From: Myxococcaceae bacterium
Lineage (GTDB): Bacteria > Myxococcota > Myxococcia > Myxococcales > Myxococcaceae
Length of the DNA: 64,000 nucleotides
Direction: 5' to 3'
Assembly: GCA_016793095.1 (NCBI GenBank)
Contig: JAEUJQ010000037.1
Location: forward strand, 140,244-204,243
The notes under the pieces are model-generated. The model was not told where the DNA came from and did not search any database. It saw nothing but the letters and a program-made list of their open reading frames with translations. The translations under genes and the position numbers were made by a program. Within the stretch, counting starts at the first letter, position 1. Every line of letters starts with the position of its first letter. Shown here piece by piece: positions 59,241 to 63,578 of the stretch.

Positions 59241-62200
59241 TCACGAGCGCGAGCACACCGCGATGAGCTGGTCTCCCCACGCCTCGCGCACCTTCGGGCC
59301 CAGGCCCTTCACCTGAAGCAGCGCCTGTTGAGAGGTGGGCCGGGCTTCGGCGATGGCGACGAGGGCGCGGTTCGTCAGCACCCGGAACGCCGGCACGCGA
59401 CGCCGCCGGGCCTCCGCGAGCCGCCACGCCCGGAGCGCCTCGACGAGGTTCGCGCTCGCGCCGGTGGACGGCAGCTCGACGGCTGGCGTCCGCGCCGCGC
59501 GCTTCTGGCGTCGTCTGCGTTTCTGCGAGGCCTGCCGCTCGGGCGGCGGACGGCTCTTCGGCGGCAGCAGCGCCCGCTTCGGGTCCGCGTCGCCCACGAG
59601 GTAGAGCCGCTGGTACGGAATCGACTGGCCGTCCTTCTCGAAGACCGCGTCCTCGAGCCGGAGCTGGCCTGCGCGGGCGAGGCCACGCATGAGCCGCTCG
59701 AACTGCGGGCGGGCGCCGGGCGCGTCACCCAGCACCTCCTTGCAGAGCCGCCCCATCGACTGGCCGGGCAGCGCTTTGAGCCGCGCGATGGCCTCGGACA
59801 GCACCGTCAGCTCGCCCGACGTCGGCGGCTCGAACGTCGCGGCGATGCAGCCTGACGGGTTGCAGACGTCGCACTGGCCGCAGGGCGCGAGGCGGTCGGT
59901 CTGGTCGCCGAAGTGCTTCACCAGGGACACCATGCGGCACTGCGCGCTCTCGGCGAAGCGGGCCATGAGGGCGAGCTGCTCCACCTTGAGCCGCCGCTGC
60001 GCCTCGTACGGCGCCTTCCATGCGTCGTGGCCCTTCGTGAGCTGCTCCTCGGTGACGCCGCGCACGCCGCCGTGAATCCACAGCTTCTCGAGCGCCTTCT
60101 CGAAGTCGTCCATCGACAGGCGCGCGCGGCGGCGAACGGTCTCCGGGTCCTGCGGGGCGTCGTCGAGCACGCGCGCCACCTTCGCCAGCACGGCGGCGTC
60201 GGGGTAGTCGCGCTCGAGGAAGAACTCGTGCGTCTTGCGGTCGACGAAGTGGTGCATCAGCACCGCGCGCGAGGGCTTGCCGTCACGGCCGGCGCGGCCA
60301 ATCTCCTGGTAGTAGCCCTCGACGCTGCCGGGGAGCGCGAGGTGCAGCACGGTGCGCACGTCGGGCTTGTCGACGCCCATGCCGAAGGCGACGGTGGCGA
60401 CGATGACGTCGAGGTCTCCGCGGAGGAACGCGGTCTGCGCCTCCTCGCGCGCGGAAGTGGACAGGCCGGCGTGGTACGGCGCGACGCGGAGCCGGCCTGA
60501 GAGCACCTCGGCGGCGTCCTCCGCGCTCTTGCGGGTGGCGGCGTAGACGATGGCGGGCACGCGGCCGGGCTCGAGCAGCCACTCGAGCGCGCGCTCGGGC
60601 CGCTCCTTCGGCAGCACCTCGAGGGCCTCGATGGCGAGGTTGTGGCGGCGGAAGCCGTGGATGAGCTGGCGGGCGCCGGGCCGCAGGCCGAGCTGCTTGA
60701 CGATGTCGCGCTGAACGAGCGGCGTGGCGGTGGCGGTGAGGGCCATCACGGGCGCGGGCCGCAGCGAGGGGAGCCGCTCGCCCAGCAGGCGGTAGTCGGG
60801 GCGGAAGTCGTGGCCCCACTGCGAGATGCAGTGCGCCTCGTCGATGGCGATGAGGGACGGCGTGCGGCGCGCGAGCAGCTCGGGGAAGCCGGCGACGCCC
60901 AGCCGCTCGGGCGCGATGAAGAGGTAGTCGAGGCGGCCGGCGAGGTAGTCGGCGCAGACGCGGCGGGACTCGGTGCGCGGTCGGCCGGAGTGAATGCGCT
61001 CGGCGGCGAGGCCCAGTGACTGGAGCCGCGCGACCTGGTCCTCCATGAGCGCGATGAGGGGGCTGACGACGAGCGTGGTGCCGCCACGCGCGAGGCCGGG
61101 CAGTTGGTAGCAGAGCGACTTGCCGGCGCCGGTCGGCATCACGAGCAGCACGTCGTGGCCGGCGATGGCGGCGTCGCACGCGTCCTGCTGGTGAGGGCGG
61201 AAGGAGGCGTGGCCAAACCTCGCGAGCAACGCGCGGCGGTCGCCAGCGGGCGGGGAGGCACCGACTCCGCTCGTCGCGTGCCGCGATGGCGTCACGGTCG
61301 TGCCCGCGGCGAACGTCGGCGAGCGGCCGGAGTTCGTCGGAACCTGCTGCCCAACGGCTGGCGCCCGGCCATCTCCGGGAGGCGCAACGCCCGCGGCGAA
61401 CGTCGGCCCGCCTGCTCGACCGCTCGCAGTCCTGGCGTGCGTCGTTGCAGCGGGCGCGGCGGCGAGGCGGTCTCCGGTGGCTCGGCTGGCAGTCGACGGA
61501 GCCGCGCGCCCGAGCGCACCAGCCGCTGACAAGTCCCCGTTGGTCGATGAGGCCGGGCGCGCGAGAGCGCCAGCCGCTGAAGAGGCTCCGCCGGCCGACG
61601 TGGCCGCGTGTGCGTGAGCGCGAGCCGCTGAAACACCGCTGGCAGAAGAACGGTCGGCGTTGGCTCGCACGCCGGTCGTGGAGCCACCGGCGACTGCTCG
61701 CGGCGGCGGCGGCCCTGCGTCACGGCGTGCGGCAGCCGGCGGGTTGCTGCGGATTCTGCCGATGACAGCCTCGACGTACTGCTCGATGCCCGCGAGGAAG
61801 TCCGGCAGCGCGCCGTGGCCCTTCGCGATGCGCTGCAGCTTCGCCTCCCACGCGCCCGTCATCGCCGCGCTCTTCACCTCGGGGTCGACGACCTCGATGA
61901 GCCGCAGCCCCTTCTCGGTGACGGCCAGCGCCTTGCCTTCGCGCACGACGTACCCGCGCGTGAGCAGCGTCTCGATGATGTTCGCGCGCGTGGCGGGCGT
62001 GCCGAGCCCGTTCTCCTTCATCGCCTCGGACAGCTCGCGCTCGTCCACCGTCTTCCCGGCCGTCTCCATCGCGGTGAGGAGCGTCGCGTCGGTGAGCCGC
62101 GGCGGCGGGCGCGTGCGCTTCGGCACTGCCTTCGCGTCGAGCACCTGCTGCACCTGTCCGGCCTTCAACCCGGCGGGGAGCAGCCCTTCGTCGTCCACCT

Positions 62201-63578
62201 CGTCCCCCGGCGCGCGCTTCTCGGTGGGCGGCCGCGCCTGGCCGACGTCGAGCACCTTCCAGCCGAGCTGCTCGATGGCCGTGCCGTGGCTCAGGTAGCG
62301 GTCGACGACGCCGGGGTTGGTGACGAGCGTCGTCACCTGCGTCGCGGCCCAGGTGAAGTCGTCGTGCCAGGCCTGCAGGAGCCTCCGGCAGATGAGCTCG
62401 TACACCCGCCCCTCATCGACACTGAGGGAGCGCCCCTCGGGGGACACCGCCGTGGGGATGATGGCGTGGTGGTCGCTCACCTCGGTGTCATCGACGAAGC
62501 GCTTGCCGAGCGGCCGCGTGCCGGTGCCCGGCGCGAGGTGTGGACGGAACGGCGGGCCGATGGCGTCGGTGACGGCGCGCAGCGTGCCGGCGACCTCCGT
62601 CGACAGGTGGCGGCTGTCGGTGCGCGGGTAGCTGATGAGCTTGTGCTGCTCGTACAGGGCCTGGGCGAGCTCGAGCGTGCGCTGGGCCGAGTAGCCGTAG
62701 AGGCGGTTCGCGTGGCGCTGCAGCTCGGTCAAGTCGTACAGCTGCGGGGGCGGCAGCTTCTTCTGCTTCGAGGTGACGTCCGAGACGGTGGCGACGCCGG
62801 ACTTCGCGCGCGCGACGATGGCGGCGGCCTCTTCGCCCGACTTCGGCAGCCGGCGCGGGTGCTCCTTCGCGCCGTCGCGGTGCCAGACGCCGGGGTACTG
62901 CTCCTGCTCGCGTGGGGAGAAGGTGGCGACGACCTCGAGGTAGTCCTCGGGGACGAAGTCGCGAATGGCGAGCTCCCGCTCCGCCAGCAGCGCGAGCGTC
63001 GGCGTCTGCACGCGGCCCACCGACAGCTGCTCGTCGAGCGACAGGCCGTACGCGCGAGACAGGTTCATGCCGACGAGCCAGTCGGCGCGGCTGCGGCCCA
63101 GCGCGGCGTTGGCGAGCCCGTCGAAGTCGGCCTGCGGCCGCAGCTTCGCGAAGCCCGCGCGAATGGCGCCGTCGGTGAGGGACGAAATCCACAGGCGCTT
63201 CACCGGGCGACGACAGCCCGCGGCCTCGGCGATGAAGCGGAAGATGAGCTCGCCTTCCCGCCCGGCGTCGGTGGCGCAGATGACTTCGGTGACGTCGGGA
63301 GCCGTCAGCGCGCGCCGCACGACGGAGAACTGCGTCGCCGTCGCGTCGAAGACTCTCAGCGGCCAGCGGCGGGGGAACATGGGGAGCAGCTCGAAGCTCC
63401 AGCGCCGCCAGCGCTCGTCGATGCCGTCGGGCTCGGCGAGGCCGACGAGGTGGCCGATGGCCCAGGTGACGACGTAGCCGTTGCCGGTGAGGACGCCCTC
63501 GCCGCGCGTCGTGGCGCCCAGCACCCGCGCGAGGTCGCGCGCGACGGACGGCTTCTCGGCGACGACGACGATGCTCAC
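59241..63578 (-). CDS. Single 1445-aa ORF fusing a complete DNA topoisomerase III (type IA, Toprim + Topo IA core) to a complete RecQ helicase (DEAH helicase + RQC Zn-binding + HRDC) through a roughly 170-aa Ala/Gly/Ser-rich linker.
   Basis: Topo III: VVAEKPSVARDLARVLG, VVTWAIGHLV, DAGREGE, GRVQTPTLALL, YPRTDSRHL, DHHAIIPT, GTPATRANIIETLLTRGY. RecQ: FRPHQQDA, LLVMPTGAGKSLCYQLP, DEAHCISQWGHDFRPDY, Zn motif CGQCDVC, and a C-terminal HRDC (VPAFRVLTNRALVAIAEARPTS). No in-frame stop between the two halves. Confidence 0.8.
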   Translation of the reverse strand: MSIVVVAEKPSVARDLARVLGATTRGEGVLTGNGYVVTWAIGHLVGLAEPDGIDERWRRWSFELLPMFPRRWPLRVFDATATQFSVVRRALTAPDVTEVICATDAGREGELIFRFIAEAAGCRRPVKRLWISSLTDGAIRAGFAKLRPQADFDGLANAALGRSRADWLVGMNLSRAYGLSLDEQLSVGRVQTPTLALLAERELAIRDFVPEDYLEVVATFSPREQEQYPGVWHRDGAKEHPRRLPKSGEEAAAIVARAKSGVATVSDVTSKQKKLPPPQLYDLTELQRHANRLYGYSAQRTLELAQALYEQHKLISYPRTDSRHLSTEVAGTLRAVTDAIGPPFRPHLAPGTGTRPLGKRFVDDTEVSDHHAIIPTAVSPEGRSLSVDEGRVYELICRRLLQAWHDDFTWAATQVTTLVTNPGVVDRYLSHGTAIEQLGWKVLDVGQARPPTEKRAPGDEVDDEGLLPAGLKAGQVQQVLDAKAVPKRTRPPPRLTDATLLTAMETAGKTVDERELSEAMKENGLGTPATRANIIETLLTRGYVVREGKALAVTEKGLRLIEVVDPEVKSAAMTGAWEAKLQRIAKGHGALPDFLAGIEQYVEAVIGRIRSNPPAAARRDAGPPPPRAVAGGSTTGVRANADRSSASGVSAARAHAHAATSAGGASSAAGALARPASSTNGDLSAAGALGRAAPSTASRATGDRLAAAPAATTHARTASGRAGGPTFAAGVAPPGDGRAPAVGQQVPTNSGRSPTFAAGTTVTPSRHATSGVGASPPAGDRRALLARFGHASFRPHQQDACDAAIAGHDVLLVMPTGAGKSLCYQLPGLARGGTTLVVSPLIALMEDQVARLQSLGLAAERIHSGRPRTESRRVCADYLAGRLDYLFIAPERLGVAGFPELLARRTPSLIAIDEAHCISQWGHDFRPDYRLLGERLPSLRPAPVMALTATATPLVQRDIVKQLGLRPGARQLIHGFRRHNLAIEALEVLPKERPERALEWLLEPGRVPAIVYAATRKSAEDAAEVLSGRLRVAPYHAGLSTSAREEAQTAFLRGDLDVIVATVAFGMGVDKPDVRTVLHLALPGSVEGYYQEIGRAGRDGKPSRAVLMHHFVDRKTHEFFLERDYPDAAVLAKVARVLDDAPQDPETVRRRARLSMDDFEKALEKLWIHGGVRGVTEEQLTKGHDAWKAPYEAQRRLKVEQLALMARFAESAQCRMVSLVKHFGDQTDRLAPCGQCDVCNPSGCIAATFEPPTSGELTVLSEAIARLKALPGQSMGRLCKEVLGDAPGARPQFERLMRGLARAGQLRLEDAVFEKDGQSIPYQRLYLVGDADPKRALLPPKSRPPPERQASQKRRRRQKRAARTPAVELPSTGASANLVEALRAWRLAEARRRRVPAFRVLTNRALVAIAEARPTSQQALLQVKGLGPKVREAWGDQLIAVCSRS

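Follow-up and report, generated by a model that had tools for sequence, protein, structure and literature searches.

A single open reading frame joining topoisomerase III to a RecQ-family helicase in a Myxococcaceae bacterium and its relatives

A DNA stretch of 64,000 nucleotides (nt) from a Myxococcaceae bacterium (assembly GCA_016793095.1, contig JAEUJQ010000037.1, positions 140,244 to 204,243; hereafter the window) encodes a protein of 1445 amino acids (aa) in which a topoisomerase III (Topo III) is followed by a RecQ-family helicase. According to the list of open reading frames (ORFs) and the translation, the gene is a single uninterrupted ORF on the minus strand, which bears out a preliminary description of this DNA that had placed both halves in one frame joined by a low-complexity linker. 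Comparison with related loci indicates that the fusion is genuine and that the reading frame of the linker is under selection. The product is probably a maintained single-chain enzyme in which a Topo III core, a variable disordered tether and a RecQ module are combined for strand passage on branched DNA opened by the helicase.

The arrangement of the two halves was determined in a large set of relatives. All of the 120 best database matches to the window protein (62-100% identity, 1242-1601 aa) carried both domain sets. The same was true of the best 120 matches to a second query, P0193, the most distant named member, which is labelled as a metagenome-assembled genome (MAG) of Zetaproteobacteria (120/120). 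Both searches together thus yielded 240 fused proteins among 240 best relatives, and these stem from independent projects. In a scan of one genome per species 58 loci were found, and the two halves were re-mapped by tblastn. At all 47 loci holding both halves these lay in one open frame, and the remaining loci end at contig ends. Complete genomes of Sorangium isolates account for about 20 of the 47 loci, So ce56 (NC_010162.1, around 4.76 Mb), So ce26 and So0157-2 being among them. Separate, adjacent topB and recQ genes, for which inspection of orthologous Myxococcota loci had been proposed in the preliminary description, were present at none of them.

The DNA of 17 Sorangium linkers was aligned without regard to codons, and gap runs were counted in the 15 pairs of more than 80% identity, the pairs not being independent of one another. 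The length of every gap run (82/82) was a multiple of three, as compared with about one third expected without frame selection; the frame of the linker, singled out earlier as a place to look for frameshifts, is kept through many insertions and deletions. Because the frame is maintained both at 47 of 47 loci and through these 82 indels, it is clear that translation through the linker is selected for. Across loci, the identity of the Topo III half to its counterpart in the window protein rises and falls with that of the RecQ half (r = 0.97), consistent with co-inheritance of the halves. Independent initiation of the RecQ part, named in the preliminary description as an observation that would speak against a fusion, finds no counterpart in a conserved internal start: a conserved methionine ahead of RecQ is lacking (Met in 8/84), and the only codons of the window that could serve as starts, a GTG (aa 762) and a TTG (aa 784), both lack a Shine-Dalgarno-like sequence. 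Neither a coding-strand terminator nor a sigma-70-like promoter was found between positions 58900 and 64000, an outcome that is uninformative in this phylum.

The protein has a three-part layout (Table 1), consisting of a Topo III core (aa 1-618), a linker of 160 aa (aa 619-778) and a RecQ-family helicase of 667 aa (aa 779-1445). The GTG start is the first one possible downstream of an in-frame stop, and the N-terminus VSIVVVAEKPS agrees with the consensus start among relatives. P0001, the database protein with 100% identity to the window protein, carries the name "MAG: DNA topoisomerase 3 [Myxococcaceae bacterium]". Domain searches in Pfam and NCBIfam, as suggested beforehand, were positive for both enzyme halves. 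Bit scores exceeded the cut-offs of the NCBIfam topB subfamily models TIGR01056 (558.8 versus 515.75) and NF005829 (647.1 versus 597) as well as of the RecQ family model TIGR00614 (recQ_fam; 372.6 versus 219.8). The assignment of the N-terminal part to TopB-type Topo III was thereby confirmed by Pfam, NCBIfam and the DHHAIIPT motif, with the core ending at about aa 612-618 rather than 650. Of the proposed full RecQ of about 620 aa with RQC zinc motif and HRDC, the zinc module and the HRDC were recovered; the half is longer, and its winged helix was seen in a structural model only. Likewise, the linker is present and lies at 61245-61724 instead of about 61290..61800.

Table 1. Features of the fusion gene and its product, with coordinates in the window.
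Feature	Residues (aa)	Position	Strand	Basis and details
Whole fusion ORF		59241..63578	-	1445 aa + stop, GTG start; identical to P0001
Toprim	4-133	63180..63569	-	Pfam PF01751; Glu in AEKPS (aa 7-11), acidic DAGREGE (aa 104-110)
Type IA topoisomerase core, Topoisom_bac	153-594	61797..63122	-	Pfam PF01131, E 5e-103
Catalytic Tyr317 motif SYPRTD	316-321	62616-62633	-	Motif position
DHHAIIPT	369-376	62451-62474	-	Motif position
Counterpart of E. coli decatenation loop	505-523	62010-62066	-	Alignment to 1D6M
Low-complexity linker	619-778	61245..61724	-	Composition; G+C content at third codon positions (GC3) 0.62-0.72
In-frame tandem repeat within linker		61494..61633	-	Tandem Repeats Finder; period 51 nt (17 codons), 2.7 copies
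RecQ helicase core	DEAD 794-952, Helicase_C 1008-1100	60279..61199	-	Pfam
RecQ core motifs	Walker A PTGAGKS 815-821, DEAH 913-916, motif VI QEIGRAGRDG 1091-1100			
Insertion between helicase core and zinc cluster	1113-1190	60009..60242	-	About 65-80 aa; predicted helical
RecQ zinc-binding sub-domain, RecQ_Zn_bind	1192-1240	59859..60005	-	Pfam PF16124; Cys1214 and C1233-x2-C1236-x2-C1239
Predicted winged-helix domain	1254-1327	59598..59819	-	AlphaFold2 model
Basic disordered spacer	1335-1367	59478..59576	-	Contains QKRRRRQKRAAR; pLDDT (predicted local distance difference test) <50 at model residues 569-587
HRDC	1376-1441	59256..59453	-	Pfam PF00570, E 4e-18

The Topo III half could be aligned end to end with residues 4-597 of E. 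coli Topo III (structure 1D6M; E = 8e-90) without large gaps. In this alignment Tyr317, situated in LISYPRTD, is the counterpart of E. coli Y328 in LITYPRSD, and the motif around this catalytic residue was kept in 119 of 120 relatives. The acidic cluster of Toprim domains (E, D-x-D-x-E) serves Mg2+; of its residues, the Glu in AEKPS, D104, E108 and E110 are present, and the second Asp is replaced by Gly. The decatenation loop of the E. coli enzyme, which we take to comprise residues of about 502-519, has an ungapped counterpart that is less basic than the E. coli loop. E. coli Topo III ends in a short C-terminal tail, whereas in the fusion the linker and the RecQ part stand in its place.

The RecQ half was aligned with residues 14-344 of E. 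coli RecQ (structure 1OYW; E = 2e-93), and the zinc sub-domain with E. coli RecQ residues 364-404. Walker A, DEAH and motif VI were unchanged in 120/120 relatives, and the four cysteines of the zinc cluster were invariant. Taken together with the Toprim Glu and the Tyr motif, these elements were retained in 118-120 of the 120 closest relatives; judged by this conservation of catalytic motifs, both halves look like working enzymes. The region preceding the zinc cluster comprises 85 residues in the fusion versus 20 in E. coli RecQ, contains many invariant columns and forms helices in the AlphaFold2 model. The insertion is also present in stand-alone relatives such as P0177 and marks a RecQ subfamily.

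Only the zinc part of the RQC region was found by the Pfam sequence search, which did not detect a winged helix. Residues 779-1445 were considered in an AlphaFold2 model built from a 49-sequence alignment (pLDDT 84, predicted template modelling score 0.70). In this model aa 1254-1327 form three helices and a beta-hairpin (pLDDT 88-96), followed by the disordered basic spacer and the HRDC helices, and a winged helix is accordingly predicted for the window protein. For the whole model, the best Foldseek match in the PDB was 1OYW, the catalytic core of E. coli RecQ (E = 6e-35, template modelling score 0.71 on the target). The distance from the zinc-cluster cysteines to the "VPAF" of HRDC is about 157 aa in the window protein; in 120 close homologues its median is about 75 aa and its minimum about 67, a spacing that is too short for a winged helix in most of them. 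HRDC itself is missing from some distant fused members (P0193, P0197 and P0192), and domains have been lost within the fused family in this way.

The linker consists mainly of small residues, prolines and arginines (A 44, G 23, S 19, P 16, T 16 and R 14 of 160 aa), and its tandem repeat encodes the peptide VSAARAHAHAATSAGGASSAAGALARPASSTNGDLSAAGALGRAAPS. Whereas GC3 is about 0.93-0.95 in either enzyme half, it falls to 0.62-0.72 in the linker, and the G+C content at second codon positions rises to 0.85. This drop is seen across the family, with a mean linker GC3 of 0.76 versus 0.93 in the Topo III half at 42 loci and a dip at 35 of these. The comparison identifies low GC3 as a family property and not as a sign of an error at the window locus; relaxed codon selection, fast slippage turnover and deliberately slow translation between the modules are possible causes. 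Relatives have linkers of between 12 and 284 aa, which cannot be aligned between clades and yet are in frame in every case. Since repeated peptide units are seen in the linkers of relatives as well as in the 51-nt in-frame repeat of the window, the linker evolves through in-frame slippage.

Some further observations concern the linkers. In the nearest Myxococcaceae/Archangium relatives (P0002-P0007) a unit (S/R)(R/T)TANGGTEHFLG recurs in 1-6 copies, of which the window linker contains faint echoes only (GPTFAAG, SPTFAAG). This unit might serve as a short linear motif for binding, or might be a mere slippage unit. Sorangium linkers repeat units of the type SPAR(A)AAVA instead. On the opposite strand of the window linker lies an ORF with an ATG start (61286-61765, plus strand, 159 aa, GC3 0.85); an antisense gene was rejected as an explanation, as the ORF has no Pfam match and its GC pattern probably follows from the Ala/Gly/Pro/Ser/Thr/Arg composition of the linker.

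A search of 1.84 billion representatives clustered at 50% identity extended the family further. Among the best 150 matches were 42 proteins of at least 1100 aa, with identities down to 38%, most of which were matched in two stretches; distant members keep the order of Topo III followed by RecQ. Stand-alone RecQ proteins of the same subfamily were also obtained. An origin of the fusion from an adjacent topB-recQ operon was considered and rejected, as no topoisomerase gene was found beside the two stand-alone RecQ relatives that were examined. Matches seeded with P0193 include the isolates Pendulispora rubella and Nannocystis radixulma and many MAGs of Bryobacteraceae (Acidobacteriota). The Bryobacteraceae proteins share 60-63% identity with the Topo III half and 52% with the RecQ half of the window protein, and are thus about as close to it as the Sorangium proteins.

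Given these features, the fusion would most likely function as a tethered, RecQ-driven type IA enzyme for decatenation and for the dissolution of hemicatenanes and double Holliday junctions. Type IA topoisomerases act on single-stranded DNA only. Extrapolating from the biochemistry of the two families, the RecQ module would bind forked or branched DNA via its zinc, winged-helix and HRDC parts and unwind it in 3'->5' direction at the expense of ATP. The helicase occupies the place where type IA enzymes normally have variable C-terminal DNA-binding domains. The exposed single strand would be the obligatory substrate of the topoisomerase, which the tether would keep within tens of nanometres of the helicase at 1:1 stoichiometry. 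Tyr317 would then cut one strand and pass another strand or a duplex through the gate, and strand passage of this kind would, without generating crossovers, unlink hemicatenanes and precatenanes as well as converged Holliday junctions and late replication intermediates. The segment corresponding to the decatenation loop may substitute for RMI1. Because the linker varies between 12 and 284 aa and has no conserved sequence, the two activities are most likely coupled by proximity, that is by high local concentration and fixed stoichiometry, and not via a fixed interface of the kind known from reverse gyrase. Obligate coupling, as put forward in the preliminary description, and double-Holliday-junction dissolution are what we infer from these considerations.

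Biochemical precedent exists for the separate enzymes. In vitro, E. coli Topo III is stimulated by RecQ, which supplies it with single-stranded DNA, and the pair brings about catenation and decatenation as well as the resolution of converging forks (Harmon, DiGate & Kowalczykowski 1999; Harmon 2003; Suski & Marians 2008; as cited in PMC13244152 and PMC8185306). Several points nevertheless weigh against the proposed single-chain enzyme. A physical interaction between RecQ and Topo III was not seen in E. coli, where recent genetics favours RecG over RecQ as the partner of Topo III (Nucleic Acids Research, 2026; PMC13244152), and biochemistry based on the E. coli proteins may not mirror what happens in vivo. 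Throughout the family, Gly takes the place of the second Asp in the Toprim D-x-D (DAGREGE versus DPDREG in E. coli; DAGREGE in 152 of 162 fused proteins checked). The score for the strict RecQ equivalog model TIGR01389 of NCBIfam stayed below the cut-off (467.9 versus 640.2) because of the divergent C-terminal half and the insertion ahead of the zinc cluster. Since many members are without a winged helix and some without HRDC, neither domain is essential to the role of the fusion. Finally, the low GC3 of the linker amounts to odd codon usage, even though it is family-wide.

Alternatively, the ORF might give rise to two working proteins, through proteolysis in the linker or an internal start of RecQ, so that the fusion would merely secure co-expression of enzymes acting independently or in loose association. 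This we consider unlikely. It would fit a linker that is long, disordered and compositionally simple, hence likely to be accessible to proteases, and that has no conserved sequence and a low GC3. RecQ proteins of this subfamily that occur on their own, with no topoisomerase gene next to them, point in the same direction, as does the lack of support for a RecQ-Topo III partnership from E. coli genetics (PMC13244152). Strict maintenance of the frame at all 47 loci and in all 82 indels argues against two separate products, however, as do linkers of merely 12-18 aa in some members (14 aa in P0020, for example), which leave little room for processing, and the lack of a conserved Met or of a ribosome-binding sequence at the GTG and TTG codons mentioned above.

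A superfamily 2 (SF2) ATPase is covalently joined to a type IA topoisomerase in reverse gyrase as well, and the family model of that enzyme, TIGR01054, partially matches the topoisomerase part of the window protein, though weakly. It is nonetheless very improbable that the fusion is a mesophilic, ATP-dependent topoisomerase of this kind which chiefly alters supercoiling, for example by introducing positive supercoils. The score of 103.4 lies below the cut-off of 471.7, and the Pfam layout shows the reversed domain order, in keeping with the preliminary description, which had distinguished reverse gyrase by its opposite order and different helicase. Moreover, the RecQ of the fusion is complete, comprising zinc, predicted winged-helix and HRDC parts, a tether varying between 12 and 284 aa does not allow for a fixed interface of the latch type, and the Topo III half is nearest to decatenating Topo III, the region of the decatenation loop included.

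Even less credible is a role in anti-phage defence as a DpdF helicase of the Dpd type. This possibility was raised by the PADLOC profile PDLC02865 ("DpdF", 1499 positions), which matches the whole fusion with 1657 bits, and by further DpdF and PsyrT profiles of PADLOC matching the RecQ half. The NCBIfam DpdF model NF041063, by contrast, scored 208.7 at a cut-off of 550, and neither in the window nor in five relatives with annotation is the fusion gene flanked by Dpd or other defence genes, the neighbours varying between loci. Stable synteny within Sorangium and the co-inheritance of the halves fit a housekeeping gene. The match to PDLC02865 is read as a helicase-family cross-match captured by an automated pipeline. 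That profile is in effect one of Topo III-RecQ fusions, and pipelines using it could wrongly assign a gene of housekeeping type to defence.

An artefact of assembly or sequencing, in which a frameshift error or an intergenic frame open by chance had joined neighbouring topB and recQ genes, is effectively refuted by the comparative data: the probability of 160 stop-free codons of linker composition is 0.14, each of the other two frames having one stop, and together with the GC3 drop and the antisense frame of high GC3 this would leave a chance frame, which had been called not implausible at this GC content, plausible for the window locus alone, yet it is excluded once relatives are compared, with fused proteins in 240/240 best matches and 47/47 loci including finished isolate genomes, a family-wide GC3 dip, and indels in multiples of three.

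With respect to known systems, the proposed single-chain enzyme is closest to E. coli RecQ and Topo III, which belong to the same two enzyme families and for which alike chemistry is expected, single-stranded DNA made by the helicase feeding type IA strand passage. The E. coli enzymes are, however, separate proteins, whereas the fusion is covalent with Topo III first, and E. coli RecQ is devoid of the 65-80 aa insertion ahead of the zinc cluster. In the eukaryotic dissolvasome, BLM/Sgs1-Top3(alpha)-RMI1, a RecQ-family helicase is likewise physically coupled to a Topo III-type enzyme, and in both cases coupling involves a disordered region, namely the N-terminal tail in Sgs1/BLM and the linker in the fusion. 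The eukaryotic complex is non-covalent and requires the OB-fold (oligonucleotide/oligosaccharide-binding fold) protein RMI1; no RMI1-like domain was found in the fusion ORF by the Pfam search. The decatenation loop of bacterial Topo III itself is said to be functionally equivalent to RMI1 (PMC13244152). Reverse gyrase, in which an SF2 ATPase is naturally fused to a type IA topoisomerase and which has hitherto been the only such fusion to be recognised, differs in carrying its helicase-like module, which is not a full RecQ, at the N-terminus, in its rigid interface, in its restriction to thermophiles and in making positive supercoils. DpdF helicases of the Dpd DNA-modification/restriction system share a RecQ-like SF2 core with the fusion, and PDLC02865 has the same length and layout; the dpd gene context is absent at the fusion loci, and the NCBIfam DpdF cut-off is not reached.

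The fusion gene stands alone. A convergent gene is located downstream, and upstream there are about 365 nt of apparently non-coding DNA up to the end of the window, which reaches 422 nt beyond the fusion start. Within these 422 nt neither a LexA box of the M. xanthus type nor a Shine-Dalgarno sequence was found. When the neighbours of the 58 loci were clustered, no conserved partner genes or operon emerged, and synteny was confined to Sorangium. Annotated neighbours are unrelated metabolic or regulatory genes that differ between loci, with none for DNA repair or defence. Convergent with the fusion gene are two GC3-supported ORFs of 326 and 379 aa (56781-59128, plus strand) without Pfam or PADLOC match. 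Farther away and unrelated to the fusion (49136-55536, minus strand) lie an EF-G-like GTPase of 664 aa and, after it, two large proteins of 671 and 706 aa that contain ABC-2-type membrane domains. At one locus in a related MAG (L005, 4996-6291, minus strand), a homologue of DnaN (beta-clamp) is encoded on the strand opposite to the fusion gene, some 1.7 kb upstream of it; other loci are without this homologue.

No description of a natural Topo III-RecQ fusion was found in a full-text literature search, in agreement with the preliminary description, which had taken the architecture to be uncharacterised. Sequences of such fusions are already public under automatic names such as "DNA topoisomerase 3" and "RecQ family helicase". 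According to a PNAS paper of 2020, hyperthermophiles "uniquely" fused these units, in the form of reverse gyrase (PMC7245102), and a topoisomerase review of 2021 describes no fusion other than reverse gyrase (PMC8185306). In the light of the protein described here, the common view of reverse gyrase as the sole fusion of this kind (PMC7245102) needs correction.

For biochemistry, single-molecule work and cryo-electron microscopy, the fusion offers a single-chain, 1:1, RMI1-free model of a dissolution machine. Nature supplies ready-made variants of it that differ in linker length (12-284 aa) and in the presence or absence of the winged helix or HRDC. Culturable hosts, namely Sorangium cellulosum So ce56, Nannocystis and Pendulispora, make direct testing possible. 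The conserved fusion is informative because the partnership of RecQ and Topo III in bacteria is disputed and has been stressed as unproven (Nucleic Acids Research, 2026; PMC13244152): a covalent arrangement whose frame and both active sites are maintained by selection in Myxococcota and Bryobacteraceae constitutes independent evolutionary evidence for that partnership. A bolder proposal, to which we give slightly less credence than to its denial, is that a self-sufficient, RMI1-independent single-chain dissolvasome forms the main non-crossover route for intermediates of recombination and replication termination in soil bacteria with large genomes (Sorangium, Nannocystis and Pendulispora, 11-15 Mb; Bryobacteraceae), and that it proves the in vivo partnership of RecQ and Topo III. 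If true, the fusion would be a "Rosetta-stone" proof that RecQ and Topo III are partners in vivo, at odds with how E. coli genetics is read at present.

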